Assembly: GCA_041650805.1 (NCBI GenBank)
Contig: JBAZKM010000004.1
Span: forward strand, 41,636 to 105,635
Direction of reading: 5' to 3'
DNA length: 64,000 bases
Source of the DNA: Candidatus Omnitrophota bacterium
Lineage (GTDB): Bacteria > Omnitrophota > Gorgyraeia > 2-01-FULL-45-10
The notes below the pieces were generated by a model, which saw only the letters and a program-made list of their open reading frames with translations, was not told where the DNA came from and did not search any database. Positions 3,807 to 47,682 of the stretch are shown here, one piece after another. Both the position numbers and the translations under genes were made by a program. Positions within the stretch are counted from its first letter, which is position 1. Each line of letters opens with the position of its first letter.

Positions 3807-3827
3807 ATTATATTCGGCCCTCTGTCC

Positions 3828-4040
3828 TTACACCGTTTCCTGGACGACGCGCACATTTATCGCGCGGGGTCCTTTATCGGACTTTTCGACTTCGAATTCC
3901 AGGGCCTGGTCCTCATTCAGCGTCTCAAATTTTATGTCGACGAGGCTGTTCCTGTGAAAGAATACCTCCCTGCCGTCAGTATCATTGATGAAGCCGAATC
4001 CCCTGTCCCTGACCAGCTTCTTTATCTTGCCTTTATGCAT
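3828..4040 (-). CDS. cold-shock protein, CspA family
   Basis: 70 aa with the RNP motifs of the cold-shock domain (KGFGFI, VFFH). Sits immediately upstream of the DEAD-box helicase. Confidence 0.85.
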   Translation of the reverse strand: MHKGKIKKLVRDRGFGFINDTDGREVFFHRNSLVDIKFETLNEDQALEFEVEKSDKGPRAINVRVVQETV

Positions 4041-4281
4041 ATCGGTTCCTCCTTTTTATTACATTAATAACTGAATATGCCTGAAAAGATAAAAGCCGCA
4101 GGTTACATCAATCCTCACCTTGCGGCCAAGATCCATATTCTACCTTTAAGTCATAATCGATTGTACCCCTTTTTGTTACGTCTGTCCAGCACTATTTAAA
4201 AATAATTTAATACCACCTTTTCTCCGATTTCTGATATAATATGGTTCGATTCTATACAATCGAAAGGACGGCGATGACGCT

Positions 4282-9716: not shown

Positions 9717-11153
9717 TTATTCGCCCCTCATGAACGCCAGAAGACCTATCATATTCCGTTTTACGTCTTCCATCGAACGGATCCTTGAGATCCTTTTAAC
9801 TATATAAGAGGGACGAAAATAAAATTTTTTGTAGCTTTTGTCCAGGAGGTCTTCCAGCTGCCGGCGCGTCATCGAATCGGGGACATAGCCGACCTTCAGC
9901 GCGCTATGGTCCTCAAAATCGAATTCTTCGTCACCGCTGACCATATTGAATACCTCTGTCCCGGGAAAGAGCGCCAGCGAACTGAATGCCGCGTAATCCA
10001 GGTCGAGGTCGCATGCGAATTTTATCGTCTCCAGCCCTTCTTCGTACGTTTCGCCGGGTATACCGAAGATCATCGTGCCGTGCGCCTCGATACCCGCCTC
10101 CTTTGTCATCTTCACCGCATTCCTGGTCTGCTCCAGGGTGATCCCCTTCTTCATTATATCGAGGACCCTCTGCGAGCCGCTTTCTATGCCGAAAAGGAGG
10201 CGCCAGCATCCGGCCGCCTTCATCTTCTTCAGCATCTCTTCGTCCAGGCAATCCGCCCGCGCGTTGGCCGCCCATACGAGGTCGTACTTTCTCCTGATCA
10301 GCTCGTCGCATAACTGGAGGTTCCTGTCCCTGAACATGGTGAACGTCTCGTCATAGAAGGTCATATCCTTTATACCGTACCGCTTGACGAGTATGTCGAT
10401 CTCGTCCATTATACTCTTTACGCTCCTCTTTCTGACGACGCAGCTCGAATGGCAGAATATGCACCGGAACGGGCACCCCCTTGAACCTATTATGTCTATC
10501 GCCGGGAGCCGTTTGTAATTTGTGAGGGTGGGCCTGTACCTGTATATGTCGACACCGTCCCAATCCGGGAAGGGTATGTCGTCGATGTTCATTATGTAAT
10601 CGGGCCCGCCGTTATCGACGACCTTCGAGGTCCCGGCGTCTTTCCACGCGAGCCCGTTTATGCCGTCCAGCGGCTTATTGCCGCCGAGGCGCTCGACCAG
10701 GCCAAGCAGCGCATTTTCGCCGTCTCCGTATACCATATAATCTATGAACGGGCTGTCCTTAAAGCAGTTGGTCTTCCATCCGTTCGCGTGCGGCCCGCCG
10801 ATCACTATCCCGGTGCCGGGGAACCTCTTCTTCGTCTTCTCTATCATGAGCTGATCATCGCGCCATCCCGCGCTGTACGTAGATATCCCGAAAAGGCCGT
10901 AGCCGCCCGTCTCCATCTCCCGGAATATCTCTTCTTCCGTCGCGAACATCCCGTTCAATATCCTGGCTTCGTGGCCCGCCCTTTTCAATGCGGCGCTCAG
11001 ATACATCAACCCGAGCGGCGGGAAAGACCCCATTATCCCCTGCCCCTCCACCTTAAAGATCTTTCTTATGAAGCCCAGCCGGTCCTTGGTGGAAAAGAAC
11101 GGGTTGGTCATCTTCGAAAAATCCCAGGGGGTCGTAAAGAGGAGCACTTTCAT
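9717..11153 (-). CDS. B12-binding domain radical SAM protein
   Basis: N-terminal cobalamin-binding Rossmann region, then CPFRCIFC (CxxxCxxC) radical SAM cluster motif. Start set at MKVLLF. Confidence 0.75.
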   Translation of the reverse strand: MKVLLFTTPWDFSKMTNPFFSTKDRLGFIRKIFKVEGQGIMGSFPPLGLMYLSAALKRAGHEARILNGMFATEEEIFREMETGGYGLFGISTYSAGWRDDQLMIEKTKKRFPGTGIVIGGPHANGWKTNCFKDSPFIDYMVYGDGENALLGLVERLGGNKPLDGINGLAWKDAGTSKVVDNGGPDYIMNIDDIPFPDWDGVDIYRYRPTLTNYKRLPAIDIIGSRGCPFRCIFCHSSCVVRKRSVKSIMDEIDILVKRYGIKDMTFYDETFTMFRDRNLQLCDELIRRKYDLVWAANARADCLDEEMLKKMKAAGCWRLLFGIESGSQRVLDIMKKGITLEQTRNAVKMTKEAGIEAHGTMIFGIPGETYEEGLETIKFACDLDLDYAAFSSLALFPGTEVFNMVSGDEEFDFEDHSALKVGYVPDSMTRRQLEDLLDKSYKKFYFRPSYIVKRISRIRSMEDVKRNMIGLLAFMRGE

Positions 11154-11154
11154 G

Positions 11155-12156
11155 TCATCGCCCCGCAAATAGTGATCTCGCCATACCCAGGCATCCCGCA
11201 ACGCTTATCAGCAGAGAAAAAAACAGGTTCATGGCTACCGTATACAGCATGAACAGGAGACCGTATTCCCTGGCCGCCGTTATGAAGATGCCGAGGTGAG
11301 AAGCGGAATACGCCAGGAAGAGGAGTAACGCGATGACGAACGTCGCCGTGATATGGAAGAATGAAAAGAGGAGAAGCGAGAGGAGCAGAAAACCGGCGGT
11401 CAGGCCGCCGAGGGCGGTACGAAAGACGTTCTTCTTTATATACGCCTGCCCGTAACCTTCTCCTCCGACCAGGCCCATCACGTGCAGAGTCCGGCGGAAA
11501 TAGTCCTTACAAAGTTTTTTAAAACCGGCGAAGTGGTGCCTTGTAACTATATCCGCGTCTGCTATCATATTATACCCGCCTTTTACCAGCACCAGGGCAA
11601 GTTTATCCTGTTCGACATCCGCGCCCTTTATCTTCTCGTCAAAACCGCCCACCTTCTCGAAGACCTTTCTCTTGATACCCTCTATCCCCCCGCCTATGAT
11701 CACCTGTCTTATGGGCCCTTTCTTCTGTTCCGCGGTGAATATGAGGTCGTAATAATACGAATGGTCGGCTATGGCCCTGTACCTCTGGGCCCATCCGTCG
11801 TTAAGCGGCCTTACGGAGTATATGCCCGTGACATAATCGACGTCGTCCCTTGTCAGATGCCCGTAGATCTTTCTCAGCGTATCCTTAAAAAATACCACAT
11901 CGGAATCTATGAATACGAGCAGGCCGCCCAGGGCCGCTTTTGCCCCGGCGTTCCTGGCGGCGGCCGCCCCTTTATTCTCCTGGCGTATGACCCTGACACC
12001 CAGGTCTTTTATCTTTTCTGCGGTGCCGTCCGCGGAGCCGTCGTCCACCACTATGACCTCGAATTCCTTATCAAGGTCGGAATCGAGGACGGAGAGCGCG
12101 GCCTCCCTTATGGTATTTTCGGCATTATAGGCCGCGATGATGACGGATATTTCCAT
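11155..12156 (-). CDS. family 2 glycosyltransferase with C-terminal transmembrane segment
   Basis: MEISVIIAAYNAENTI...VIVVDDGSADGT...DSD GT2 motifs. Hydrophobic C-terminus. Confidence 0.7.
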   Translation of the reverse strand: MEISVIIAAYNAENTIREAALSVLDSDLDKEFEVIVVDDGSADGTAEKIKDLGVRVIRQENKGAAAARNAGAKAALGGLLVFIDSDVVFFKDTLRKIYGHLTRDDVDYVTGIYSVRPLNDGWAQRYRAIADHSYYYDLIFTAEQKKGPIRQVIIGGGIEGIKRKVFEKVGGFDEKIKGADVEQDKLALVLVKGGYNMIADADIVTRHHFAGFKKLCKDYFRRTLHVMGLVGGEGYGQAYIKKNVFRTALGGLTAGFLLLSLLLFSFFHITATFVIALLLFLAYSASHLGIFITAAREYGLLFMLYTVAMNLFFSLLISVAGCLGMARSLFAGR

Positions 12157-12244
12157 ATTTATTCTGCATCCCTTTGATTATTATACTCGACGACGAAACT
12201 ACGTCAATCACAATCTGCCCCGGCCATAGCATATGGAGCGGCTT

Positions 12245-13834
12245 TCAGCGCTCACCCCCAAGGGCCTCTTTTATATCGGGATGCCGCCCTAAGAATGAAG
12301 AGGCGAGGGACGGCTTCTCCCGGTACAGCTCCCTGTAAAGGGCTATGGCATTGTCCAATTCCCCCATCTTCCAGTATGTCCAGGCAAGCCAGCTCCTTAC
12401 AAATACGGATCCCGGTTTTATGGCCAAGGCCTTCTCCAGAAATTTTGCCGCTTCGCGGTAGTGCTTGGCAAGATAGCTGGCAGTGCCGGTATACACATGG
12501 AACATATTCTTGCTGTCCAGGCCGAGCGCCTTCTTCATCTCATCGATATCGCGCAGCTTATCCCACCTCCACTTTTCCCGTGGGGCCAGCAGGTTATTCT
12601 TGTATAGGATATTAACGACCTCGAGCGCCATAAGGGCCTGCCCCTCCGGCGACGGGTGTATCTGATCTACGGTGAGGTCATCACCGACTATGCCGTTCGC
12701 GGAATTCTCTTCGAACACCTTTTGGGTCTGTATGACATCGACCCCTTTCATGCCGGCCATCCTTATATTCTCATAAAGCCGGTTTACAAGCGAAGGGGCG
12801 TGGATGGGGAAATAATCATTGTCGTTCGCCAGCACATAGTTGGCGTTGGCCTTATCGGATTCCCCGAGCCGTTCGTAACATTCCGCCGCCCTGTAGTAGG
12901 TGAGCGCGTATGAAGGATCGATATTTATGCACCTGCCGTATAACTCGAGCGCCTTGCCGTACTCTTTCCCGGCAAAGAGACCTTCCGCTTCCGAAAAATA
13001 TCCCTCCCACGATGCAAGGGCATCCTTATCAACGGAGGCGCCGTGGATAGACCTGACCGGCTCATACCCCTTCCACCGGGACAGCCCTTCGAAAAATATG
13101 ACCGGGATGCCGTGCAGACGCGCCGTTTCGATGATCCTGCCCACGTTCTTTTCGAAGTTCCGCGTGACCTCCCTGAACTGCAAAGACCCGGGACGGAGCA
13201 GGTTGGCGTCTTCCCTGAAGGCCTCCGGGCTGTCCGATTCCATGTACCACGGGTCTTCCGCCGCCGCTCTGGCGTCGCGTATCCTGCTGCGTTCGAGCTT
13301 CGCCCGGATCATAAGCCTGTTAAAGATGCTGAGAAGAGCGGACCTCTTTGGAACGGCCCCGAAGAAGTCCTCTATCCTGTGCAGTAACGGTTTTTTTGAA
13401 GAATACCTGAGCCTGTATTCAACGAGGCAAAAATCGTTGTGCACCGTATAGAATACCGCAAGGTCGGGTTTGTAGGGGATCGTCTCCGCGAAGGCGTTGG
13501 CAATAAAGCTGCTGTCCGCCCCCATCCTGCCGAAGTTGACTACGGTGATATCCCTCATGACGTCTTCCGGCAGAAGGTCTGACAGGTAGAGCCTCAGCCA
13601 CTTCCCTATCACCGAACTGGGATATAGCGCCCCTCCGTGCATCGTAGATTCGCCGTACAGGAATATACGGAATTCGCGCGCCTTTTTGTGCCGGGTCAGG
13701 TTGTGTTCGATTATACGCCGTTCAATGTAGTCATAGGAAGACGGTGATGTGAAGACCCTGCTCACGAGCTCCGCGGACCCGAAGATCGCGATGATGATGA
13801 TCGCGCTGAACATTATATTTTTATAGGCCTTCAT
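12245..13834 (-). CDS. SGNH/GDSL-like hydrolase domain fused to C-terminal TPR repeats
   Basis: N-terminal TM anchor, FLYGESTMHGG (GDS-like) block. TPR repeats toward the C-terminus. Confidence 0.5.
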   Translation of the reverse strand: MKAYKNIMFSAIIIIAIFGSAELVSRVFTSPSSYDYIERRIIEHNLTRHKKAREFRIFLYGESTMHGGALYPSSVIGKWLRLYLSDLLPEDVMRDITVVNFGRMGADSSFIANAFAETIPYKPDLAVFYTVHNDFCLVEYRLRYSSKKPLLHRIEDFFGAVPKRSALLSIFNRLMIRAKLERSRIRDARAAAEDPWYMESDSPEAFREDANLLRPGSLQFREVTRNFEKNVGRIIETARLHGIPVIFFEGLSRWKGYEPVRSIHGASVDKDALASWEGYFSEAEGLFAGKEYGKALELYGRCINIDPSYALTYYRAAECYERLGESDKANANYVLANDNDYFPIHAPSLVNRLYENIRMAGMKGVDVIQTQKVFEENSANGIVGDDLTVDQIHPSPEGQALMALEVVNILYKNNLLAPREKWRWDKLRDIDEMKKALGLDSKNMFHVYTGTASYLAKHYREAAKFLEKALAIKPGSVFVRSWLAWTYWKMGELDNAIALYRELYREKPSLASSFLGRHPDIKEALGGER

Positions 13835-14753
13835 AGGATCGGCTCCATATGCCGGCTAGTATGGCGGCGCTTATGATGCACCAGGTGGCGAAGAGGGCAT
13901 TGGGTATAGCGGCCTCCGGCGATGCGTACTTGATGGCGAGGACCGCGCCCAGGCCCGCATTCTGCATGCCCACGCCTATAGCGAGGGTGCGGCACTGCCT
14001 CTTATCGAACCTGAAGAGCACGCCTGCCCAGTATCCCAGGAAGAGCCCCGAGAAGTTAAGCAGCGCGACCGCGGCAAAGGCGATGCCCGTAATGCGCTCG
14101 AGCGATCCCCTGTTCAGCGCCACTACAAGGCCGCAGATGAATGCTATGAATAAGGTGGAAAATGCCGGAAATACCGGCCTCATCTTTTCGATATGCCCGG
14201 GAAAACGATGCCTCACGATGAGCCCGGCAAAGAGAGGGATTATGACCATGAGCATTATGCTCTGCATCATGGGCCAGAATTGGACCGGGATATACTCGCG
14301 GGCAAAGAGGTATGTAAGCATCGGCGTTACGACCGGCGAGATGAGCGTGGTGCCTGTCGTAAGCGCGACGGACAGGGCCACATCCGCCTCCGCTATATAC
14401 GACATCACGCCCGCGGCCATGGCGTCGGGAACGGCGCCTGCGAGGATAAGGCCGAAGGCAAGGGCAGGCGGGAGGTCGAGGACCCGCGCTATTACAAAAG
14501 CGGCGGCCGGCATTATGGTGAACTGCGCAAGTATGCCGAGAAGGAGATACCGGGGCCTTTTAAAGATGGGCTCGAAGTCCTTCATCGAAAGGAGGGCGCC
14601 TATACCGAACATGGTGCAGGCGAAGAACCACTCCATGAACGGTTTGAGCGGCGTAAAGGCCTGCGGGAAGAGATAGGCCATGGCTACGGAGAGCACCACC
14701 CAGACGACCAGGTACCTGGTAAAATAACCGGCTATCCTGTTAATATGGCTCAT
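13821..14753 (-). CDS. bile acid:sodium symporter (BASS/SBF) family transporter
   Basis: About 9-10 TM helices. MQNAGLG and other SBF family blocks. Confidence 0.65.
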   Translation of the reverse strand: MSHINRIAGYFTRYLVVWVVLSVAMAYLFPQAFTPLKPFMEWFFACTMFGIGALLSMKDFEPIFKRPRYLLLGILAQFTIMPAAAFVIARVLDLPPALAFGLILAGAVPDAMAAGVMSYIAEADVALSVALTTGTTLISPVVTPMLTYLFAREYIPVQFWPMMQSIMLMVIIPLFAGLIVRHRFPGHIEKMRPVFPAFSTLFIAFICGLVVALNRGSLERITGIAFAAVALLNFSGLFLGYWAGVLFRFDKRQCRTLAIGVGMQNAGLGAVLAIKYASPEAAIPNALFATWCIISAAILAGIWSRSYEGL

Positions 14754-14799
14754 GACTTACCATATTATAGCACAGAATACGTATTCTTTATGCTATACT

Positions 14800-16278
14800 A
14801 TGGTCCATATGAGACATGCCTGGAACGTCTTTCTGGCGATATTTTTTGCCGGGGTTGTGTCGCTTATACTGGAACTTTCCATCCTCAGGGAATTCACCTA
14901 CGTATTCGGGGCATCATCATTCTCCAACGCTTTCATCATATCTCTCTTCCTGACCGGGCTGGCCGGCGGGACGTATCTTGGCTCCTGGGATAAGTTCAGG
15001 GCAAAGACCCCGGGATCTCCCGCTCTGCAATTTTCATTCTTCCAGTTCCTGGCGATCGTATTCATACTCCTTTTCTATATAACAAAAAAGTATTTCGTTT
15101 ATATCTGCCCGCATAAGGGGGCCGTGATAATCTATTTCGTGGCTTCCACCCTGATCCCGTCGCTGATCGCCGGCCTTACCTACGCCGTTTCGGTGGAGAT
15201 ATTATACGACAAAGGCGAAAAATACATAAAATATATATATGCATTCAGCACCCTCGGCAGCGTCTTTGGGGGCATATCCCACGGTATATTTTTTGTGCCG
15301 TTCTTCGGGATGAAATCGACTTATATCTTCGCGGCCGTATTTGCCGCAGCCGCCCTCTTATTCATGCTCCCGTTCACCAGGCGCCTTCTGATGCTCACAA
15401 CCCTCATCTTCGTGGCCGCGGTCGTCCTTATCATATTGAGCGATCGTTTTACGATCTGTCATAGTTTTAAGAACCTGCTCTTCACCGGGAATAGCCAGTT
15501 CGGCCCCGTGGAGATATGGCAGACGGAAAGCGGCGCCGTCGATATGCGGGTCAACCGTGTACACCAATACTTCAGTTATGACTGGGACACACAAAGGCAC
15601 AGGCAATGGGCGGAAACGACGCTGGAGATAGTGGACCGGCCGTGCAACGTGCTCCTTCTGGGATACGGGAGCGGCGTGAGTTCGGCGGCTTTTTTAGGAT
15701 CGCCCCTTGTAAAGAGAGTGGATACGGTCGAGAATTGCCTGCCTGTCATAGAAGCAAGCAGGGAGGTCTTCCCCGGGGAATATGCGTCGGTTTCCCGGGA
15801 CCCGCGGTCGCATATCATCATACAGGATTTCCGCAGCTACATAAGGTTCACGAAAATAAAATACGATATTATCACGCTCGACCACAGTATCGCGGACCCT
15901 GTATACCACGGTTTTTTTACCACCGATTTCTTTGACAGGTTAAAGGATATAATGAACCCCGGCGGGGTCATAGCATTGCTGGGCCTGGGTATATCGCGCA
16001 ATACCACCTCTTCGTCGTTCAATTATGTCTACAGGAACATCGATCCTGACAAGGAGCCGGGCTTTCGCAGGGGGGTCAACTTCCTGATGATGGAAAAGAT
16101 CGGCGGGAAGGCGGCGGGCAATTACGAGCAGGTCGAAAAGGAACGGTTTTCAGGCGAACCTGTCTATTCGGACGACGACGTGCAGGGCATGGACTTGAAC
16201 GAGATGGGCCGGGTATTCAGGTCAAGACTGAGCCATTTTTTATCATTCCGGGGCAGGATAGCCGCAATGCCGCGCTGA
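14800..16278 (+). CDS. membrane-anchored spermidine synthase-like aminopropyltransferase
   Basis: N-terminal multi-TM domain, then LLLGYGSGVSSAAFL...IIQDFRSY...KYDIITLD SpeE-like fold. The start is ambiguous (the ORF opens at 14752; internal Mets at 14800/14809). Confidence 0.55.
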   Translation: MVHMRHAWNVFLAIFFAGVVSLILELSILREFTYVFGASSFSNAFIISLFLTGLAGGTYLGSWDKFRAKTPGSPALQFSFFQFLAIVFILLFYITKKYFVYICPHKGAVIIYFVASTLIPSLIAGLTYAVSVEILYDKGEKYIKYIYAFSTLGSVFGGISHGIFFVPFFGMKSTYIFAAVFAAAALLFMLPFTRRLLMLTTLIFVAAVVLIILSDRFTICHSFKNLLFTGNSQFGPVEIWQTESGAVDMRVNRVHQYFSYDWDTQRHRQWAETTLEIVDRPCNVLLLGYGSGVSSAAFLGSPLVKRVDTVENCLPVIEASREVFPGEYASVSRDPRSHIIIQDFRSYIRFTKIKYDIITLDHSIADPVYHGFFTTDFFDRLKDIMNPGGVIALLGLGISRNTTSSSFNYVYRNIDPDKEPGFRRGVNFLMMEKIGGKAAGNYEQVEKERFSGEPVYSDDDVQGMDLNEMGRVFRSRLSHFLSFRGRIAAMPR

Positions 16279-16324
16279 TCTGCAAGCCGGCCGAAACAAC
16301 GCGGGGCACCCGCCTACCCTGCCT

Positions 16325-16684
16325 TCACTTCGCAAAGATCGTATAGGCCGCGACGACCGCCAGGAAGATCCCGAACGCCTTTCTAAGGGCGATATTGGAG
16401 AACCATTCCGCTATCGTTGCGCCTAAGAACCCTCCTATAAGGAAACCCACGCAGATGAACGCGGCTATATAAAAATGGACATGGCCGCTATTGTAGTACT
16501 TTATCACCGCGAGAAGCCCTATGGGTAGGAGCATGATGGCAAGCGTCGTCCCCTGCGCCTCATGCTGTGTCAGCCCGGCAAGAAAGACGAGGCCGGGGAT
16601 CAGTATCGTCCCGCCGCCTATACCGAACATGCCGGAGAACGTCCCGGCGGTAAGCCCCAGGATAAGATACAGGATCTCTTTCAT
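16325..16684 (-). CDS. TauE/SafE (DUF81) family membrane protein, half-size
   Basis: GMFGIGGGTILIPGLVFLAG motif; 4 TM helices. Confidence 0.6.
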   Translation of the reverse strand: MKEILYLILGLTAGTFSGMFGIGGGTILIPGLVFLAGLTQHEAQGTTLAIMLLPIGLLAVIKYYNSGHVHFYIAAFICVGFLIGGFLGATIAEWFSNIALRKAFGIFLAVVAAYTIFAK

Positions 16685-16782
16685 AGTCCGCCCTTTCTTC
16701 GATTTTCAGTGCTCATGATATTTTACCGGTCTAATTATAACATGCCGGGCGCTCTCTATGGGGGTAAAATCTCCTATTTTTA

Positions 16783-16811
16783 TTGACTATATTTTCCTGC
16801 GATAGTAATGT
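16783..16811 (+). promoter_or_regulatory. putative sigma70-type promoter for the downstream TMTC-like gene
   Basis: TTGACT (16783-16788), 17-nt spacer, TAATGT (16806-16811). Sits 37 nt upstream of the ATG at 16848. Confidence 0.35.
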
Positions 16812-16847
16812 AATGTCTGGCATACGAAGGAAAATATCGACCGAAGC

Positions 16848-18371
16848 ATGAAAAACGACCATAGCATCTCAGGATACACGCCGGCGCTTCTTGCCATCGG
16901 CATAGTTGCCGTGACCGCCGTTATTTACCACAGTGCGCTATGCGCGGGATTCGTGAACTGGGACGACTCCGTCTACGTCATCAACAACAAGCTGGTCCGC
17001 TCGCTCGCGCCCTCCAATATAGCCCGCATGTGGACCTCCTTTAACGGGGGCTTCTATATACCTCTCGTATGGCTTACGTATGCTGTGACGTACCATTTCT
17101 GGGGGCTCGATCCGCGGATGTACCATCTCGTCAATGTCGCCTTTCACTGCGCGAACGCGGCCCTCGTCTTTATCCTGTTCCGGCGGCTTCTGGCCGTCTC
17201 CGGGCATCGCGACGGATCGGCCCTGCCTGGCCGGGGGACCGGCCTCGCCATCGCGGGCCTTGCCGCGGTCCTCTGGAGTATCCACCCGCTCCGCGTTGAG
17301 AGTGTCGCGTGGGTCACGGAAATGAAGGATGTGGGATGTACCTTCTTCTTTCTATTGAGCCTGCTCGCCTATGTAAGGTACGCGGCCGCCCCGGCGCGCA
17401 ATATGGTATTCGGCGGCATGTCGCTCCTATTCTTCATGCTCTCGCTGCTGTATAAACAGACGGTCATCCTGCTCCCCCTCGTCATGCTCTGCCTCGATAA
17501 ATGGCCGCTCGGAAGGCTCGGACGGATCAAGGATGTCGCAGGTCTCCTCAGGGAAAAGGCGCCTTTCTTCATACTCTCGATCGTGTCCGGGGTCATGCTC
17601 TATGTGGCCCATTCAACCGTGGTGGGTATAACGCCGATAAAGGATATCCCTCTCTCCTTCAGGGTCATGAACGCCTTCCACTCCGCCTTCTTCTATCTGG
17701 CCAAGACCTTCCTGCCCGTAGGGCTATTCCCGCTCTACCCGATACTGCGCCCCCACGAGACCGCCTTCTCTTTCGAGAACGTACTGTCGTGCATCCTCGT
17801 CATCCTCATCTCGGCCGCATCTTTCATATGGGGCAGGGGCAGAAGGTCGTATATCCCGGTGGCATGGCTCATATACCTCTTCACCCTGGTCCCCTCCATA
17901 GGGATAGTGCAGTCGGGCCGCCAGGCGGCGGCAGACCGTTTTTCATACATCCCGGCCATGAGCATCACGTTCCTGGTGAGCGCTGCCATCATCTCATTCC
18001 CGTCGCTATTTAAACGCCGTATCCATGCGCGGATAGCCCGCGCGGCGGTGATCGCAATGATCCCCATCCTGCTTATCACGCTCGGCATCTTGACGGTGAA
18101 CCAGATATCGATCTGGAAGGACCCCATATCTCTGTGGAAACATGCCGCGCGGGGATATCCTGTCGATTCGTCGTTGATACACGGGAACCTGGCGGAGGCG
18201 TATATGGAGGCGGGTGAAACAGATAAGGCGATCGCGGAATACCGCATTGCGATATCGATAGATCCAAAGGAGGCAAAATTCCACCTGGGCCTCCTCAACG
18301 CTCTCCATAAGGCAAACAGACAGGATGAGGCCATGGCGGAACTGATGCAGGCCCTCTCATCGGGGAAATAG
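16848..18371 (+). CDS. TMTC/PMT-like GT-C membrane glycosyltransferase (DUF1736) with C-terminal TPR
   Basis: Multi-pass N-terminal domain (YHSALCAGFVNWDDSVYVINN) typical of bacterial TMTC-like proteins. TPR repeats at the C-terminus. Confidence 0.55.
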   Translation: MKNDHSISGYTPALLAIGIVAVTAVIYHSALCAGFVNWDDSVYVINNKLVRSLAPSNIARMWTSFNGGFYIPLVWLTYAVTYHFWGLDPRMYHLVNVAFHCANAALVFILFRRLLAVSGHRDGSALPGRGTGLAIAGLAAVLWSIHPLRVESVAWVTEMKDVGCTFFFLLSLLAYVRYAAAPARNMVFGGMSLLFFMLSLLYKQTVILLPLVMLCLDKWPLGRLGRIKDVAGLLREKAPFFILSIVSGVMLYVAHSTVVGITPIKDIPLSFRVMNAFHSAFFYLAKTFLPVGLFPLYPILRPHETAFSFENVLSCILVILISAASFIWGRGRRSYIPVAWLIYLFTLVPSIGIVQSGRQAAADRFSYIPAMSITFLVSAAIISFPSLFKRRIHARIARAAVIAMIPILLITLGILTVNQISIWKDPISLWKHAARGYPVDSSLIHGNLAEAYMEAGETDKAIAEYRIAISIDPKEAKFHLGLLNALHKANRQDEAMAELMQALSSGK

Positions 18372-18382
18372 AAGAGACGTTT

Positions 18383-18467
18383 TCCGATCTTATCGGGAAA
18401 CTGTCTGTCGAAACAGCCGGCTAAACAGTCGACGGGTACACCTTCCCGAAGAAAACGGAAAACGTCT
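18383..18467. terminator. long imperfect palindrome between convergent genes (possible bidirectional terminator)
   Basis: AGAGACGTTTTCCG (18383-18396) pairs perfectly with CGGAAAACGTCTCT (18454-18467). Inner pair ATCGGGAA/TTCCCGA. Confidence 0.35.
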
Positions 18468-18492
18468 CTAAGGACTTATCTGATTAAATATG

Positions 18493-19128
18493 CTATGAGA
18501 TTCTCTTTTTTCTTCTTGCCATTGCCATTGCTGCGGCACCAATACCGAATAGCACCATAGTGGCCGGCTCCGGGACAACTCCGGATGGATTTCCATAAGC
18601 CCTATACGCAAAGTCAAGATTATCGTTATCCGAATATGTGCCATAATTAGTAATTAAGGCTTCATCCGGTATCGGGTTTATTGGGTTTCTATCCATCGCG
18701 CCCGTATAAGTATCTCCTGTTCTTACTTCGAAAGCAACCCAATAATTACCGGCCGGCAACGCCCAATTTACGCCGCTTACACCATACCAGCCTGTAGCTG
18801 CTCCAACTAAAAAGTTCTGGTCATATAATTGGCTATTGACGTCTGGGATGATCCCTGAATAAATTCCATCACCATAAATTGCCAGGGTCGCTGTCCCGCT
18901 CACTTGAAGGTGTCTCCATCTTTGGTCTGTAAAGTGAGCTTCGATGTTAGTGAGCGAATAAGGGTCAGACAATGTAAACCTGGCGGCGTATCCTAAGCCG
19001 TTTTCCATATAACCATAGACTGCCGCATCGGGAGGGGTCCCCGTATCAAATATTACTGCCCCATAAGCCTGGCTCGAAATTAACAACATGGTAGCAAGCA
19101 GCGTATTTAATATTATTTTTATTCTCAT
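18493..19128 (-). CDS. PEP-CTERM sorting-domain secreted protein
   Basis: Signal peptide MRIKIILNTLLATMLLISSQAYG. C-terminal VPEPATMVLFGIGAAAMAMARRKKRIS (PEP motif + TM + basic tail). RBS AAGGGGG upstream of the chosen ATG. Confidence 0.7.
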   Translation of the reverse strand: MRIKIILNTLLATMLLISSQAYGAVIFDTGTPPDAAVYGYMENGLGYAARFTLSDPYSLTNIEAHFTDQRWRHLQVSGTATLAIYGDGIYSGIIPDVNSQLYDQNFLVGAATGWYGVSGVNWALPAGNYWVAFEVRTGDTYTGAMDRNPINPIPDEALITNYGTYSDNDNLDFAYRAYGNPSGVVPEPATMVLFGIGAAAMAMARRKKRIS

Positions 19129-19396
19129 CCCTACCCCCTTTTTATGATTGTTTCGATACCGCCATAACTGCCTTATATCATACAATCTAAATACAATATC
19201 TATACAAGCAATAACCGTGCCGATATCAGATACCTTCGTAATTGTTTAAAATGAGATTGGAAAGATGATAGGTATGCCATACTATGACGAGTATGGTGTT
19301 TAAGCGGCTATACACGTGACTAAAATCAGGGCTTGTATAAAAAGCTCGATGGGTCCACCAGGCAGCAGGGCACATTTAAGGATTGTGCCAATTTAC

Positions 19397-19717
19397 TCAA
19401 ACTTTTCGAGGGGACAGGTCTGGGATGCCATCCGGAACCGGTCTGGGATTGGTACGAGAACCGTCCCCGAAAACCGTGGATAAGTATATTCGGCCATCTG
19501 ACAAATGCCCAGTGTCTAATACACTAACGATATTGGCGTGTTCAGCGGCCTTGAGAATTTGTGCTTCATAAAAGAAATTTTTCTGATTAACAATTTTATC
19601 TTTGGGAATAAACTTAACCGCACATTCTGTATTTAATCCAGTGTCTATAGCCAACCAAACCTCTCCAAAATGACCAGAACCCAATTTTTCCTTTAATTCA
19701 AATTTATCTAGCGTCAT
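19397..19717 (-). pseudogene. truncated Ser/Thr protein kinase (N-lobe only)
   Basis: LGSGHFGEVW (Gly loop), AVKFI (beta3 Lys), EAQILK (alphaC Glu), HANIV. Kinase similarity ends after about 90 aa, where the GC content jumps from about 30% to about 60%. The reading frame continues into unrelated sequence. Confidence 0.5.
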
Positions 19718-20171
19718 GAAACGTGCTCCATCCGACTAAAATTGCCTCTTGAATACATGTATCTATTTCAGCAAAGTCTTGGAAAACAGAATAGTCTAAA
19801 TCTGTTTTTAAAGATTGAGTCCTTCCTTTTAATCCCAAATCTTTTGCTATAGTGCAATTAACCTTTTTATAGACTTTAATTCCTTTAATTGCCGCTGCCA
19901 ATTGAATTATGGCCTCATTTTCTGTACGTATTACAAAGGGGCTACCTCTACTTGCCATACCCTCCGTTCCCTTTATCGCTATAGCATCTATTTTATTTTT
20001 TTCTAGAATATCTGTTATTTCTTGAGAAAACCATTTAAGTTCTTGAGGCCTTGTGTAATTCTTGGGAAAGAGTATTCGATTGTGTTGTAAGAGTTTTGGA
20101 GATTTTTTGCTACCATCCAATATAGCAAAACAATAATCTTTCGTGCTACATCTTATTCCCAAAATAATCAT
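19704..20171 (-). CDS. small RNase-H-like-fold protein (possibly DUF3010-like)
   Basis: MIILGIRCSTKDYCFAILDG N-terminus resembles RuvC/YqgF-type beta-strand-1. AT-rich codon usage. Overlaps the kinase start by 14 nt. Confidence 0.3.
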   Translation of the reverse strand: MIILGIRCSTKDYCFAILDGSKKSPKLLQHNRILFPKNYTRPQELKWFSQEITDILEKNKIDAIAIKGTEGMASRGSPFVIRTENEAIIQLAAAIKGIKVYKKVNCTIAKDLGLKGRTQSLKTDLDYSVFQDFAEIDTCIQEAILVGWSTFHDAR

Positions 20172-20283
20172 TATATTTAGCGCCTTATTGTGAAACTGCC
20201 ATTTTGATCACATATTTTTCGTACGGGCAAACATACTATAAAATATAAGGTACTAGTGTTTGTTTCGTAATAATAGATTATAA

Positions 20284-23151
20284 CTAGTAAATGATTTTAT
20301 AATTAAATTTCAGCCAATCACTAATTTCTTTATTAATAAGTGGCATAACATGATCGATTAATCCCAGCTTTCTTTTTAGCAAGTCGCTGAACTTTTTTGT
20401 TACGCTTCGCGGATCTCTATCTGTTGTTACAACTTTTAAAATAATTTCTAAATATTTTCGTCTCATACCAGGGTCTGGTAGTTCGAGTATTATCAGTTTC
20501 ATAAAATCGGTTAAAACATTAAGTTGTGAATCTAGGGTGGTTTCTTTGGATTGCAGTATGTCAATAAATGCGTTAAAATCATTGGACGCTTGAAAACTAT
20601 TTTTTTCTGCACAGTATAATAGCATCTGGGCTGAGATTGAAAGATAATAATACTTTAGGCCTGCTAATTTAATTACCGCATCATAATATTCAGATTCACT
20701 CAGTAGCTTTTTTTGTACAAGCATAGTTAGAAAATTTTGTATGCTAAAGCTGTCTATTTTATAATCATTAAATAATAATTCTTTGAATAAAAGATCATCA
20801 CAAAATAACGGCAGTCTCTTCTCTTTGCATGTTTGTATAGAATAAATGTAGGGTCTCCCCAAAAGCTGTTCTTTAGTTTCTAGGTCTTTTTCTAATAGCT
20901 TATCTAGGCCAATTATATTAAAAGTATTTGCTGCAGCATCTTTGATTTTTTGTAGAAAGTCTATTTTATTTTTGCTACCTTCTGCAGAAAAATTTTGCCT
21001 ATAGGCTTTCCCCTCATGATAAAAGACCGACATTCCTTCACTATCCCCAAATCCTGTTTCATCGGCTATGCTCATATCTATTTCATCTATTGTCGCTCTG
21101 GTGACATAAACCTTATCAAAGTATTTTGTCGGCAATGTTAACATGTCTAAATACGCTAAAGTAAATAAAGAGAGCGGATCCAATAACACCTCTTTAGATT
21201 TATTAATTAATTCCTGTTCTTTTATTTGTTCTACGGCGCTTCCAGAGGCACAAAATAATCTATTGCCCATTGCAATTAAACCAGCCCAGGCAGTAAATAA
21301 ACTAATATTCATAAATTTAGACAATGCGCCTATTGTTAACTTTTTAGATAAATACATTTGGGTTATCTGTGATGCGTATTCCGATTTCCTCTTTACCATT
21401 TCTAGTACTTTTTCAGGATTCGCTTCAATTTTCTGTATTGTTTTATTGCTGGGGAAATATGTATTAAAATTGTTTAGTATACTTTGGAATAATTTTACAT
21501 ATTTACTTTTTATTCCCAAAATTTCAACTACCTCATCTCGCCCGCCTTCTATCTTAATCGTTATTTTATCGCCAATTTTTTTTCCATAAATCGCTTTGCC
21601 TAAATTTGATTCTTTATAGATTTCTGCCCTAACTAATGATGCCCCAGGATCATCTAATAATAAAAACTCGCTTTCTTGACCATCTTTTCTTAATCTTATA
21701 TAAAAATCTTCTTTAACAAATTCTGATTCTAAAATAAGATCGCCTGTTTTCTTGCCTTTTTTGAGAAATAAAAATAAGTATAAAAGCTGTGTCTCAGCAT
21801 CGCTATCAGCAAGGGCTACTACCTTATACGCTTGCTTAATTGCTTCTTCTGTATAATTAGTCCGTGCCAAGAATTTTGTTAGTAAAAGAAGGGTGTCTTT
21901 ATCATTAATACGGTTTTTGATCTCTAAGAGTGATTTTATCTGATGTTCTTTATCGCTCCCCCCGATGTCGTTGACCATTGCTGTGTAATTAATCTTATGC
22001 CTGTAATTTTGTGGTTCTATTTTTACCAATCTTAAATATAGATCCCTAGCTTTATCTAATGAGCCTAATTGTTGGTAAATCGCTGCTTGTAATTCTAACA
22101 CGAATGGGATATCGCCTTGTTTAGCTATTAGATTTTTACATACTTCTAAACATTTTTGTATGTTTTCCGCTCTGTTTTCTTTTGATTCGTATAGACATAT
22201 TAAATAATCTTTTATAAAATCGTCAAATAAAGATTCTGAAACTATAACTTCATATAGCGGTATTGCAGCATCATATGAGCCGATCTTTTTATAATGTTTG
22301 GCCAAATGTATTATTGCAATATTTTTTTCTGGTCCTGTAGCAGTTTTCATCACTTCCGTTATTAGTGATTTAAAAGCCTCTGTTTCTCCTTTAGCCCTTT
22401 TTATCTCTGCATCTAATAGTAGTATTTTTGGGTCTTTACCAAATTTGCTATATAGTTGCTTTAAAATACTGCTTGCTTCATCATAATCTTTTTTTGATAC
22501 GTAGGTTTCTGCTAATAACAAATTGGGTACAATATTTAAACTGAGAAGCTCTTCTTTATAATATTGTTTAATTGCAGCAATTGCTTCCTCAGCTCTCGGC
22601 TCTGGTTGATCTACATACGATGATACTAGGGTTGGCATTATGTCATCTTTACTAGCGCCCCCATCTAAAGCTTTCTTAAAATCTACTATTGCTTCATCTT
22701 GGTTTTTAGTTAATACATTTATTTTTGCTTTATTTGCATATGCAAGAGGGTTTTTAGGATCAATTTCCAATACGGCATTTATGTCGTTAATAGCAAGATC
22801 AAACTTATCTAATATGGCTCTAACGCTAGATCTGTTTATGTAGGCATCTTCTAGTAGGGTCTTTTTATCAGTTGTTTTTAACAAATTGATGGCTTGTGTT
22901 AATAATCGTTCCGATTCTTCTAAGTCTTTTATATTTTCTGAGGATAGACCAAAGCGCCAAGCTCGGCCTTTCATAATAAATTGCAGTAAATGCGAGCCAT
23001 ATGTTAAATAAATTTCTGGTATGTCCTTCGCCGTCTCTAACGCTTTCTGGAAATATTCCTTTGCTTTTACAATTTCGTCTTTTTTTGCATAGGCAAGAGC
23101 AATATTTAGCAAAGCGTTTTTATCTTTTTTAAATCTATCTTTAATTTCCAT
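20284..23151 (-). CDS. large TPR-repeat protein (955 aa) with uncharacterised C-terminal half, low-GC
   Basis: More than 10 TPR-like repeats in the N-terminal about 480 aa. The C-terminal half has a possible PIN-like segment (VLLDPLSLFTLAYLDMLTL...VYVTRATIDEI). GC about 30%. Confidence 0.55.
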   Translation of the reverse strand: MEIKDRFKKDKNALLNIALAYAKKDEIVKAKEYFQKALETAKDIPEIYLTYGSHLLQFIMKGRAWRFGLSSENIKDLEESERLLTQAINLLKTTDKKTLLEDAYINRSSVRAILDKFDLAINDINAVLEIDPKNPLAYANKAKINVLTKNQDEAIVDFKKALDGGASKDDIMPTLVSSYVDQPEPRAEEAIAAIKQYYKEELLSLNIVPNLLLAETYVSKKDYDEASSILKQLYSKFGKDPKILLLDAEIKRAKGETEAFKSLITEVMKTATGPEKNIAIIHLAKHYKKIGSYDAAIPLYEVIVSESLFDDFIKDYLICLYESKENRAENIQKCLEVCKNLIAKQGDIPFVLELQAAIYQQLGSLDKARDLYLRLVKIEPQNYRHKINYTAMVNDIGGSDKEHQIKSLLEIKNRINDKDTLLLLTKFLARTNYTEEAIKQAYKVVALADSDAETQLLYLFLFLKKGKKTGDLILESEFVKEDFYIRLRKDGQESEFLLLDDPGASLVRAEIYKESNLGKAIYGKKIGDKITIKIEGGRDEVVEILGIKSKYVKLFQSILNNFNTYFPSNKTIQKIEANPEKVLEMVKRKSEYASQITQMYLSKKLTIGALSKFMNISLFTAWAGLIAMGNRLFCASGSAVEQIKEQELINKSKEVLLDPLSLFTLAYLDMLTLPTKYFDKVYVTRATIDEIDMSIADETGFGDSEGMSVFYHEGKAYRQNFSAEGSKNKIDFLQKIKDAAANTFNIIGLDKLLEKDLETKEQLLGRPYIYSIQTCKEKRLPLFCDDLLFKELLFNDYKIDSFSIQNFLTMLVQKKLLSESEYYDAVIKLAGLKYYYLSISAQMLLYCAEKNSFQASNDFNAFIDILQSKETTLDSQLNVLTDFMKLIILELPDPGMRRKYLEIILKVVTTDRDPRSVTKKFSDLLKRKLGLIDHVMPLINKEISDWLKFNYKIIY

Positions 23152-23154
23152 TTT

Positions 23155-24147
23155 CTAACCCTCTTTACGATATAACGTCATCGCTTCTTCTGTCTTATCA
23201 GCAGCCATTAGTAATTCGAATTTTATATTAATTGCTTCGTTATCATTTGGATCCATTATTATAGCTGCATCTATATATGGTAGACCATCCAAAGGCTTGT
23301 CCTCAAATAAACATGCCAATGCTCTATTCTTACAAGCAATAAGTGAGGGTGGAGATATAAAATCATATGCAATTTTAAACATTTTCGACGCTTCTGCTTC
23401 ATCTCCTAATACTACATAACATACGCCAAGATTATTATAAACCTTGAATTTTGCAATCATTGGTACTTTAAGGTCTTTTTTAAAATCATTTATTAATTTT
23501 TCGTATATTATTTTTGCGCTTTCATGCTTGGCGTTATCCATTAAAACTTTGGCGTTATCGATTTCGGTTTTATACTTACACCCCTCTAGCGAATCGATGT
23601 CACTAACTTTGGCAGGTAAAATATTGGATCGAGATGTGCTTATAGATTGTTCATAAGTTAATTCTGTCGATGGTTTCTTTTCGAGCGTTTTTGCTATATT
23701 AGTTCGAACCTCTATCATCATTTTGTTAGTAGCTTCCATTGTTTGAGAAACAGAAAGAGGCACATGCTCTGCTTTGGGTAATTCTTCCGTAAAAATTTCT
23801 ATAAACCTAGCGCTTATTAACCCTATGTCTCGTTGCTTAAGATTAGTGCATTCCCCACATTTTTCGTTCAAACCTTTAGATATAGCGTCTTGCGCTATTT
23901 GAGGATTTATCTTGTAGTTTTGACCGATTACGGCGATAAGCTCTTTATTATTACTAAGCGTTTCCCATAAAATGATATCAATTCGTCCACTTTTTAATTC
24001 ATTAGAAACTCTTCGTGCAGATATAATAACTGCTTTTAGTATAGGCTCTTTTCTGAACAAAGAGAGGAGCTTTTCAACGGCCTTTTCTCCAAAAACCGTT
24101 GTTATTAACTCTGCTCCCTTTATACATATCTGGAATAATATTTCCAT
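23155..24147 (-). CDS. hypothetical protein with C-terminal TPR repeats, low-GC
   Basis: 330 aa. 4-nt gap to the downstream TPR gene (likely operon). No recognised N-terminal domain. Confidence 0.45.
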   Translation of the reverse strand: MEILFQICIKGAELITTVFGEKAVEKLLSLFRKEPILKAVIISARRVSNELKSGRIDIILWETLSNNKELIAVIGQNYKINPQIAQDAISKGLNEKCGECTNLKQRDIGLISARFIEIFTEELPKAEHVPLSVSQTMEATNKMMIEVRTNIAKTLEKKPSTELTYEQSISTSRSNILPAKVSDIDSLEGCKYKTEIDNAKVLMDNAKHESAKIIYEKLINDFKKDLKVPMIAKFKVYNNLGVCYVVLGDEAEASKMFKIAYDFISPPSLIACKNRALACLFEDKPLDGLPYIDAAIIMDPNDNEAINIKFELLMAADKTEEAMTLYRKEG

Positions 24148-24170
24148 ATAGCAGATTAATCCTATAATAA

Positions 24171-24203
24171 AAAAGCGTTAGAATTAATTCTAACGCCTTA
24201 ACA
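24171..24203 (-). terminator. rho-independent terminator downstream of tRNA-Asp
   Basis: Minus strand GGCGTTAGAAT-T-AATTCTAACGC hairpin followed by TTTTTTAT. Confidence 0.45.
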
Positions 24204-24445
24204 TTCTTAATGTTATGTAATTGCTCTTGATCTCATAACCAACCCTTTGTTGTCTGATATTATAGCAGTATCGAGATATTACTACAAGGATTAGGTTAGA
24301 GCGACAGTTGGCTTCAGTAGAGTAGTTTGACTATTATACTTACGATGAGCGAGGCAAGACACTACGTTGTGACAGGATTGTGACATAAAAAAACTCGCCC
24401 TAAGTATAGAATTAGAGCGAGTCCGCCACTTACTCGACGATAAAC

Positions 24446-24522
24446 TGGCGGGGACGACGGGGATCGAACCCGCGACCTTCAGATCGACAATCTGACGTTC
24501 TAACCAGCTGAACTACGTCCCC
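24446..24522 (-). tRNA. tRNA-Asp (anticodon GTC)
   Basis: 77 nt. GGGGACGTAGTTCAGCTGGTTAGAACG...anticodon loop TTGTCGA...CGGGTTCGATCCCCGTCGTCCCCGCCA. Perfect 7-bp acceptor stem. Close to E. coli tRNA-Asp. Confidence 0.85.
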
Positions 24523-24663
24523 AACAAAAATCCCGATATGATAAAAGTGGTGTTATTTTAGCAATTCCGGCTTGTCTTGTCGAGACAAATTTTTAATCCC
24601 GATTTTGCGTTTAAGGACCGTTAATGTACCCCCCTGGGGGGGCCGGTCCGAAATTTTCCGGCC

Positions 24664-26340
24664 TTATTTCCGGCGGCTCTCTTTTTTGAAGGCTGCCGCG
24701 CCTTCGAAGATGAGAAAGGCCGACAGGGCGAGCAGGATAAAGATAGTGATGTCGTTTGCGCCGATACCGGGCCTGCCCGATGCCAGGCGCACCAATGTGG
24801 GTTTGACCAGCAGGATGAGCGCGGTTATCGAGGTCACAAGCATAAAGACCGTCGCAAGAAGGACATGGAAAAATTTCATCTTACTCTTGAAGAGCCACAG
24901 GCTGATGATCAGGAGCACAAACCCCGCCAGAAGCTGGTTACTGGCGCCGAAGACCGTCCAGAATACCTTCCATGCCGGGATGACGTTGCCGTCCGCGTCA
25001 ACGATCTTCTGCATCAGGAAGACGGCGGGCAAAAGAAGCGTGATGAAGCTCGCGATATACGGGCTGAAACGGTTGCGCATACCGGCCAGTTCTTCAAATA
25101 TGTAACGGCCGAGACGCGTCGCCACATCGAGCGTGTCATACACAAATGTTGCGAACGCAAGGAGCGCAAAATTGAGCGCGAAGGCGTGCGGTATGCCCAG
25201 GCGGTCCAGGAATGTCGCGATACCGCTCGCGTAGATCATGTTCGGATCTTTGAGCGCATTCGCCTGCGACGCCCCGAGAACCATAAGGGTCGAGAGGGCG
25301 ATGATAGCCACCGCGCTTTCCAGGAGCATCCCGCCATACCCGACAGGCGCAGCGTCGGTCTCCTTATGGAGCTGCCGCGAAGTGGTGCCGCTTGCCACCA
25401 GCGCATGAAACCCCGAACATGCGCCGCATGCGATCGTGATGAAGAGTATCGGGAAGAGAGGAAGGCCCGAGGGGTTCTGCCAGGATATGAACGCCGGGTA
25501 CTCGACATGCAGACCCCCGAAGAGCGATCCTATCGCTATACCGATGAAGCTGACAAAGACCGTCCCTGCCAGGAAGAACCCTCCCATATACCCGCGTGGC
25601 TGCAGGAGGAGCCATACCGGGATGACCGAAGCCATAAAGCAGTAACATAAAAGGAGTATATCCCATGTCTGACGCACTTCCATCCCCGGTATCGGCGGGA
25701 TATACAACGGGAAGAGATTCCCCGCATAAATACACCCCAGTATCAACGGCGCAAATATAGCGGTTGCGAGAGCCAGGTTCATCCTGAAACGCTTGACCGC
25801 TATGCCCATCGCCAGAGCAAGGCCGAGGTATAGCATTGAACTCGATGCCACCTTGCCGCCGTTCACCGGCTCAACGAACGTGTTCACCGTAATATCGGTA
25901 AAGACGGTTATTATGTACATGAGCGAAAACCACAGGAAGATGAGGAATACGATAAACGCCCGAGGCGGCATGTAATTCTTGACCACCTCAGCGATCGACC
26001 TTCCCTCGTGCCGTATCGAAGCTACGAGGGCGCCCATATCGTGTACGCCGCCGATAAGGATGCCGCCGATGATTATCCATAACACGGCAGGGCCCCAGCC
26101 GAACCATAGACCCGCCAGGATCGGGCCGACGATCGGGCCCGCCGCGGCGATGGCCGAAAGGTGCTGGCCCAGGAGATAGGTCTTATGGATCGGTTCGTAA
26201 TCCATGCCGTCGCGAAGCGTATGCGCGGGGGTCTTACACCTGTCGTCGAGGCAAAATGATCTCTTCAGGAAAAACCCGTAGATGAAATACCCCGCCGCTA
26301 ACGGCACGAATAAAAGTATGACGGTGAAGAAGAGGTTCAC
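24664..26340 (-). CDS. cstA: carbon starvation protein A (peptide/pyruvate transporter)
   Basis: 558 aa multi-pass protein. MDYEPIHKTYLLGQHLSAIAAAGPIVGPI N-terminal signature. Confidence 0.85.
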   Translation of the reverse strand: MNLFFTVILLFVPLAAGYFIYGFFLKRSFCLDDRCKTPAHTLRDGMDYEPIHKTYLLGQHLSAIAAAGPIVGPILAGLWFGWGPAVLWIIIGGILIGGVHDMGALVASIRHEGRSIAEVVKNYMPPRAFIVFLIFLWFSLMYIITVFTDITVNTFVEPVNGGKVASSSMLYLGLALAMGIAVKRFRMNLALATAIFAPLILGCIYAGNLFPLYIPPIPGMEVRQTWDILLLCYCFMASVIPVWLLLQPRGYMGGFFLAGTVFVSFIGIAIGSLFGGLHVEYPAFISWQNPSGLPLFPILFITIACGACSGFHALVASGTTSRQLHKETDAAPVGYGGMLLESAVAIIALSTLMVLGASQANALKDPNMIYASGIATFLDRLGIPHAFALNFALLAFATFVYDTLDVATRLGRYIFEELAGMRNRFSPYIASFITLLLPAVFLMQKIVDADGNVIPAWKVFWTVFGASNQLLAGFVLLIISLWLFKSKMKFFHVLLATVFMLVTSITALILLVKPTLVRLASGRPGIGANDITIFILLALSAFLIFEGAAAFKKESRRK

Positions 26341-47666: not shown

Positions 47667-47682
47667 GAGAGAGTAATATATC

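Follow-up and report, generated by a model that had tools for sequence, protein, structure and literature searches.

The DNA analysed here is a stretch of 64,000 nucleotides (nt) from a Candidatus Omnitrophota chromosome (JBAZKM010000004.1, positions 41,636 to 105,635), referred to below as the window. It derives from the 203-kb contig k141_736944 (megahit) of the metagenome assembly ENA ERZ27247363, part of a Candidatus Omnitrophota metagenome-assembled genome (MAG). Between a tRNA-Asp gene and host genes of this chromosome, the window exhibits an AT-rich, compositionally foreign block of about 4.9 kb (positions 19480..24390, edges approximate), here called the island. It carries four co-oriented open reading frames (ORFs) on the minus strand, of 330, 955, 155 and 106 amino acids (aa). 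An earlier note on this DNA had described them as a protein with C-terminal tetratricopeptide repeats (TPRs), a large TPR protein with a possible PIN-like C-terminal segment, a small RNase-H-fold protein and a Ser/Thr kinase cut off after its N-lobe, all lying in a low-GC block beside the tRNA. The ORFs are all as described there, and each of the four assignments is borne out by the matches given below. The two larger genes appear to belong to one TPR–GreA/B-C–PIN system (module A), and the two smaller ones to a RuvC-like/kinase pair (module B).

The GC content is 0.29-0.35 in every 400-nt sliding window from about 19600 to 24400, and 0.50-0.63 in the flanks on both sides. It is 0.332 for positions 19500-24440 as a whole vs 0.533 for the remainder of the window. 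The GC content at third codon positions (GC3) is 0.25-0.28 in the three intact island genes vs 0.72-0.75 in the flanking CstA, OPRT and 507-aa genes. This contrast is seen at synonymous sites (0.26 vs 0.73) and is thus not an amino-acid effect. The island is also the top tetranucleotide outlier of the window (distance to the host profile, robust z 11-14). The sliding-window GC and tetranucleotide analysis that the earlier note had proposed therefore agrees with a foreign, low-GC block in a chromosome of higher GC, and uniform GC and codon usage is excluded. The figure of about 57% GC given there for the chromosome holds for the immediate flanks but not for the window mean, which is nearer 53%.

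The 955-aa gene (20284..23151, minus strand) encodes the core of module A. TPR matches (TPR_2, E=3.7e-19; TPR_14, E=1.5e-18; and others) extend across residues 13-400. A PIN domain at residues 656-791 (20779..21186, minus strand) matches Pfam family PF20698 with E=1.3e-18 and 68 bits (cut-off 27.8), over 134 of the 138 model positions. Its acidic positions near 658 (D/E), 690 (E) and 787 (D), and an N(D/E) motif near 800, are conserved among seven aligned homologues, even at 23% identity. With these acidic residues conserved, the PIN domain is predicted to be catalytically competent. A GreA/B C-terminal-like domain is found at residues 489-548 (21508..21687, minus strand), with matches to GreA_GreB (PF01272, E=3e-5) and to TIGR01462 greA (E=1.8e-5). 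The GreA-C motif S.(L/F)G.A..GK.(I/V)GD is conserved in seven homologues of the core, and PF01272 is recorded for two homologues, P0002 and P0004.

The 330-aa gene (23155..24147, minus strand), here called the N-partner, exhibits Pfam TPR matches. Its AlphaFold2 (AF2) model is composed of an all-alpha N-terminal domain (about residues 20-130), a disordered linker (about 129-184) and about four TPRs (about 190-327), which continue into the TPR array of the core. The N-terminal domain is rare, with four clear cluster matches among 1.84 billion representatives. Three homologues of the N-partner (P0032-34) each lie upstream of a PIN-TPR-GreABC gene of about 955 aa.

The two ORFs are in one frame with only TAG-AAA between them. 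The core starts 3 nt after the TAG of the N-partner, and its ATG is preceded by a Shine-Dalgarno-like sequence, AAAGAGGG. A homologue of 1282 aa (P0002, 50% identity) spans 98% of the concatenated 330-aa and 955-aa pair; fused forms thus exist. The same split is found in five other lineages (loci L005, L013, L055, L057 and L060), which makes at least six with the window. In all split loci the stop of the N-partner lies 0-10 codons from the start codon of the core, mostly with the two genes overlapping in another frame. The five aligned full-length cores (window, P0003 of L005, L013, L055 and L057) all begin with M(K/E)IK. Since the other five lineages are split at the same point, this is an established two-gene form and not a fresh pseudogene. 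A recent nonsense mutation as the origin of the in-frame TAG was considered and set aside as the principal explanation, because the five lineages are split alike and the stop comes with a Shine-Dalgarno-like sequence and a following ATG. Recoding or read-through across the TAG is conceivable but not needed. As judged from sequence, the 330-aa and 955-aa genes together make up one system, an intact split member of the TPR–GreA/B-C–PIN type.

The N-terminal domain of the N-partner differs among relatives. In L013 (JGI 3300035701, a 7.6-kb contig), the N-partner gene (1509-2510) encodes a DUF4365-like (PD-(D/E)xK-like, restriction-endonuclease-like) domain where the window protein has the helical one; the C-terminal TPRs of the two proteins are 49% identical, whereas their N-terminal domains are unrelated. 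The N-terminus of P0004 carries an HNH-like motif, CxxC...HH. These differences fit the variable N-module of the family, and the pair of window and L013 looks like a clear case of an N-module swapped within one cassette lineage.

Homologues of the core have the following neighbours: a PLD-SNF2 protein, an MmeI-type methylase, DUF5677 and GIY-YIG in L003; Thoeris ThsB/ThsA, a KAP NTPase and Fic in L005; a type I HsdS in L055; a helix-turn-helix (HTH) gene in L057; a serine recombinase and a DUF2924 gene in L060. On plasmids, only distant homologues (19-21% identity) of the core occur; most of these plasmids are predicted to be conjugative. L057 (ENA ERZ27247363, k141_1061840) is a different contig of the same metagenome as the window. 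Its N-partner and core genes (1228-2250 and 2219-5098) are preceded by the small HTH gene, and their products are 44% and 50% identical, respectively, to those of the window. The presence of this second pair in the same metagenome indicates that the system circulates within the community.

The TPR–GreA/B-C–PIN system was defined computationally by Kaur, Iyer, Burroughs and Aravind (eLife 2021, PMC8195603) and corresponds to the Pfam entry PF20698, 'PIN-TPR-GreABC'. Its genes are mostly stand-alone. The TPR–GreA/B-C–PIN core is constant, and the N-terminus holds either an EAD10 adaptor or an effector domain, of which there are about 13 kinds; the system is predicted to engage the secondary channel of RNA polymerase and to cut transcripts, the N-terminal domain being a back-up suicide effector (PMC8195603). 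The supplementary tables of that study hold 0 matches for 'Omnitrophica' (PMC8195603). The window genes resemble this family in that the TPR array, the GreA/B-C domain and the family-specific PIN domain occur in the same order with the acidic residues kept, in that the N-module varies among close relatives, and in that homologues are found in defence islands and on mobile DNA. They differ in that the N-module is a separate 330-aa protein with TPRs of its own, split from the core by an in-frame TAG that is one substitution away from a fused form. The helical N-terminal domain matches no Pfam family, including any EAD model that Pfam may hold.

Following Kaur et al. (2021), the GreA/B-C domain of module A would dock on the rim of the RNA polymerase secondary channel, the PIN RNase would cleave transcripts from invader DNA, and the TPR array would act as a scaffold or a sensor. 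The variable N-module may be an adaptor or a back-up effector, represented here by a rare helical domain on a separate protein. We suggest that the N-partner probably docks on the core by extending its TPR superhelix. A counter-invader function of module A via RNA polymerase is predicted, with support from the gene contexts of its homologues only.

The 155-aa protein (19704..20171, minus strand), encoded by the first gene of module B, exhibits a RuvC/RNase H-like fold. Position 7 of its family is an arginine in 19 of 20 members (the twentieth, P0011, lacks the N-terminus) and aligns with the catalytic aspartate of Deinococcus RuvC, while E70 is kept. The catalytic acidic tetrad, which includes this strand-1 aspartate, is therefore not complete. 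The protein is only 11-12% identical to RuvC resolvase (PDB 4ld0, 6lw3) and to DUF3010, a member of RNase H-like clade D (Majorek et al. 2014, PMC3985635). Unlike both, its family has the first catalytic aspartate replaced by arginine and an invariant motif of its own, TIAKDLGLKG; unlike RuvC, its gene is coupled to a protein kinase and not to ruvAB.

This coupling is widespread. In about 30 of the 34 distinct loci that a metagenome scan with subsequent tblastn yielded, the homologue is followed within 0-20 nt by a Hanks-type kinase of about 345 aa; the GC contents of these loci range over 0.31-0.62. A kinase is absent from L008, L024 and L026, and in L048 it lies 1.2 kb away. Among 16 full-length partner kinases from other loci, DFG and APE are present in all 16 and HRD in 15 (HCD in L009); the G-loop and VAIK are also kept, and the kinases share a conserved C-terminal domain of about 85 aa. 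Their best models, MAD6 and PD-T4-6, score far below the family cut-offs. Restriction-modification loci, AbiEi/Fic or DUF6988 enclose or adjoin some copies of the pair. Viral contigs and plasmids yielded no homologue of the RuvC-like gene. Within the limited sources covered (PADLOC, NCBIfam, Pfam and the searchable literature), no description of the pair was found. The RuvC-like gene and the kinase are apparently a conserved, separate and undescribed two-gene module.

Some loci exhibit altered forms of this module. The kinase is lacking in L008 (2307-2768) and in L024 (7001-8102); in L024 the RuvC-like gene is solitary, lies in a locally low-GC patch and is followed by a PEP-CTERM gene. In L048 the start of the kinase is shifted 1.2 kb downstream, which suggests an insertion. 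Decay or remodelling of the pair seems common. A link between PEP-CTERM genes and the RuvC-like gene, as the window and L024 might hint, was examined and dismissed as coincidence, the two PEP-CTERM proteins being unrelated.

In the window the kinase is reduced to a remnant of residues 1-83 (19469..19717, minus strand; Pkinase E=3.3e-11, residues 6-73), with the G-loop, the VAIK lysine, helix C and strands 4-5. Past about residue 83 the 106-aa ORF reads into unrelated DNA of higher GC content and ends at a stop at 19397. The stub has none of the HRD, DFG and APE motifs, and no remnant of the C-lobe was found anywhere in the window. The claim of the earlier note that the kinase ends after its N-lobe where the GC content jumps is correct: DNA and protein homology to intact kinase relatives stops at 19469-19485 (blastn to L013 ends at 19479-19485), where GC goes from 0.35 to 0.49-0.54. 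With a kinase that ends at residue 83, module B cannot function as a pair here.

Intact module B kinases are Hanks-type with all catalytic motifs, like the known defence kinases (PD-T4-6, Stk2-type; MAD6 of MADS, PglW of BREX). Against MADS MAD6 (NF047741; cut-off 460) the stub scores 56.6 bits and the intact L013 kinase 172 bits. In contrast to those systems, the module B kinases are short (about 345 aa), have a distinct C-terminal domain of about 85 aa and an obligatory RuvC-like partner upstream; the window copy is an 83-residue stub, and the island holds no other MADS or BREX genes and no methyltransferase. We suggest that the RuvC-fold protein may be a non-cleaving binder of branched DNA that controls the kinase of about 345 aa, and that module B would be dead in the window. 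It is possible, though the idea is a tentative one, that this dead RuvC homologue recognizes branched DNA, for instance intermediates of phage recombination or replication, and activates the kinase, as an undescribed two-gene immune or stress module. If this is true, the window holds a decayed copy of that module, and L013 and about 30 other loci hold intact ones.

The L013 contig provides an intact relative of the whole island. Its GC content is 0.34 throughout, and it has counterparts of all four island genes, arranged and oriented alike, which encode proteins of 333 aa, 953 aa and 140/159 aa and an intact kinase of 347 aa. The window proteins share 80% (kinase residues 1-83), 66% (RuvC-like protein) and 51% (core) identity with their L013 counterparts. 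The left edge of the island was set where homology to this intact cassette ends, and the right edge where GC climbs toward a terminator hairpin. The window thus appears to hold part of a cassette from a lineage that is at home in AT-rich genomes, with a cut within the kinase as its left edge.

The island is a horizontally acquired, partly decayed defence islet, the intact part of which is a member, in a split clade, of a known predicted family. Positions from about 19480 to 24390 are likely to be part of a mobile defence cassette that came recently from a donor lineage with AT-rich DNA, and they hold two independent modules. Of the two origins proposed in the earlier note, a decayed integrative element or a transferred defence/effector module, the latter is favoured by the PF20698 match, by homologues beside restriction-modification, Thoeris, KAP NTPase and Fic genes, and by the same cassette on a contig of 34% GC. 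The cut in the kinase coincides with the left edge of the foreign DNA; it may reflect either partial capture of the cassette or later deletion of the remainder. The fragment may have arrived by illegitimate or homology-facilitated recombination, or within an element whose machinery has since been lost.

The tRNA-Asp(GTC) gene (24446-24522, minus strand; ARAGORN; Rfam tRNA 72.4 bits) is intact, with its 3' end toward the island. The earlier note regarded it as the integration target and placed the right edge of the block about 25 nt away. The block does face the tRNA 3' end, but its compositional edge is nearer 24300-24390, the GC content dropping between about 24400 and 24300. A consensus scan reveals a terminator-like hairpin (24391..24424, minus strand) immediately after the tRNA 3' end, with 13 pairs and a T-run behind it. 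This is probably the terminator of tRNA-Asp itself, that is, host DNA between the tRNA and the island. A second hairpin (24172..24199, minus strand; repeat and consensus scans), with 12 pairs and a T-run, lies 25 nt upstream of the start codon of the 330-aa gene; it is possibly a terminator imported with the island and insulating the operon. No integrase or recombinase is present among the called genes of the island or of the 9-10 kb or so examined on each side, in agreement with the earlier note. With up to 3 mismatches allowed, the 25-nt 3' end of tRNA-Asp matches the window only once, hence there is no second copy, and no direct repeats were found at the island boundaries, where the earlier note had suggested looking for one. 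An Rfam scan of 18300-24700 for structured RNAs gave the tRNA alone. With no integrase, no repeat of the tRNA end and a hairpin between the tRNA and the island, tRNA-targeted integration is not supported. We see no sign of arrival by tRNA-site-specific integration, and the adjacency of the tRNA is not evidence for it.

An element of this kind might nevertheless have decayed: a genomic island or prophage that had targeted tRNA-Asp could have later lost its integrase, its attachment (att) repeats and its distal part including the 3' part of the kinase gene. This would account for a block adjoining a tRNA 3' end with a gene truncated at its distal edge, and the N-partner/core pair of L060 does lie beside a serine recombinase and a DUF2924 gene. 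However, tRNA-targeting elements usually recombine within the tRNA gene, and this tRNA is complete and separated from the AT-rich DNA by the terminator-like hairpin. Such an origin also has to contend with the missing integrase and repeats and with a RuvC-like gene for which no homologue was found on viral contigs or plasmids; we consider it unlikely. The island shares with tRNA-associated genomic and defence islands its foreign composition, its position beside a tRNA 3' end, its defence-type cargo and a decayed gene at one edge. It differs from them in its small size (4.9 kb), in lacking an integrase and an att duplication, and in the intervening hairpin.

The four genes could instead form one composite system, with regulation of the TPR–GreA/B-C–PIN pair by the RuvC-like protein and the kinase, or the reverse, so that the loss of the kinase disabled or rewired the cassette. 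Their tight spacing and their identical order and orientation in the window and L013 are what this predicts. Yet the RuvC-like/kinase pair occurs without a TPR–GreA/B-C–PIN gene in about 30 loci, the N-partner/core genes occur without the other two in L003, L005, L055, L057 and L060, and co-occurrence is confined to the window and L013, which look like one cassette lineage. A single composite system is accordingly quite improbable. We treat modules A and B as independent, since they travel together in this lineage but are found apart elsewhere.

The junctions were compared with the Logan assembly of the same sequencing run, which is identical over 10284-24475. The left junction is thus supported, being identical in two assemblies together with about 9 kb of host-like DNA. 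The Logan contigs end at 24475 and 24494, both inside tRNA-Asp, with an 18-nt gap between them; the short-k assembly graph therefore branches there. The branch could be due to identical tRNA segments elsewhere in the community or to heterogeneity at the site. Because both contigs stop within the tRNA, the right junction is carried by the megahit contig alone. A k of 141, as the contig name k141_736944 implies, exceeds the 77-nt tRNA, so that reads must span the right join.

These breaks inside the tRNA, the origin of the sequence from a MAG and the atypical GC3 (0.42) of a neighbouring PEP-CTERM gene could be taken to mean that the block is native DNA with low GC due to its encoded proteins, or an assembly chimera of two organisms. 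The first is contradicted by a GC3 contrast that is a synonymous-site signal, the second by the left junction and by a k longer than the tRNA, and the closest relative of the cassette (L013) resides in uniformly AT-rich DNA. Both are very improbable. It is hardly tenable that the TPR proteins are envelope or exopolysaccharide factors (PrsT-like) tied to the PEP-CTERM protein encoded next to the island: the weak NCBIfam matches to PrsT (TIGR02917; 74 bits for the 955-aa protein) are far below the 312-bit cut-off and explained by generic TPRs, the PEP-CTERM gene lies outside the AT-rich block with a different composition, N-partner/core homologues have no PEP-CTERM neighbours, and the PF20698 PIN and GreA/B-C domains of the 955-aa protein effectively refute this function.

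Several observations weigh against a recently acquired defence cassette with two modules. The island is joined to the CstA side across the tRNA, and this join is present in one assembly (the k=141 megahit contig). That the acquisition is recent is read from composition alone, and no close relative with an empty site was found. The match of the core to GreA_GreB (PF01272) amounts to 24.4 bits, just under the Pfam gathering score of 26.9. The N-terminal domain of the N-partner has no Pfam match (residues 1-189, E<=1), and a fold search with it gave TPR matches only. The PADLOC models, which represent the defence-model screen recommended in the earlier note, do not match the 330-, 955- or 155-aa proteins. 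To our knowledge, no member of the TPR–GreA/B-C–PIN family has been experimentally tested. About half of the informative contexts of the RuvC-like/kinase pair consist of housekeeping genes; a defence role of module B therefore rests on a weak association.

As to the history of the site, a scan of species-representative genomes with CstA returned nine loci labelled Omnitrophota or Planctomycetes (47-76% identity), none of which has tRNA-Asp or another window gene nearby. These were the closest genomes found, and they share no synteny with the window. Exact-protein look-ups of CstA and of the 507-aa neighbouring protein gave no organism other than this one, and only from this sample.

The left flank of the island (18400-19330) is compositionally intermediate. 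It holds the PEP-CTERM gene (18493-19330), the GC3 of which (0.42) compares with 0.72-0.75 for host genes, and the DNA upstream of this gene (19050-19300) is AT-rich (GC 0.30-0.39). The PEP-CTERM gene may be an older or separate acquisition that makes the left flank a mosaic. A GC-rich stretch of about 60 nt (19410-19468) adjoins the point where kinase homology ends. It contains two copies of GGTCTGGGAT, at 19417 and 19440 (23 nt apart), and short inverted ends, GGGGAC/GTCCCC; no further copies of the repeated sequence were found elsewhere in the window. This stretch may be a mark left by the recombination event in which the kinase was cut.

Farther away, the cumulative GC skew exhibits a minimum and a sign change at about 46-47 kb, followed by genes for YidC (47683-49290), ParA (49353-50219) and ParB (50216-51076). 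The region of the chromosomal replication origin is probably represented by positions 46000-51100, at a distance of about 23-27 kb from the island. The stretch at 48-50 kb is a mild tetranucleotide outlier (z 5.3, GC 0.42).

Through the island, the predicted TPR–GreA/B-C–PIN system is recorded from Omnitrophota, together with a clade that encodes the variable N-module as a protein of its own, the split falling at a conserved point. This clade provides a natural experiment on the coupling of N-module and core. The island also illustrates clearly how small defence cassettes pass between lineages that differ widely in GC content, and how their edges decay. In itself the island is an ordinary kind of defence islet, unsurprising to a specialist, and module B is its most interesting part. 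The conserved pair of a dead RuvC homologue and a kinase, which many uncultured lineages share, may represent a new sensor-effector logic that is open to testing, and may matter more than the island itself.

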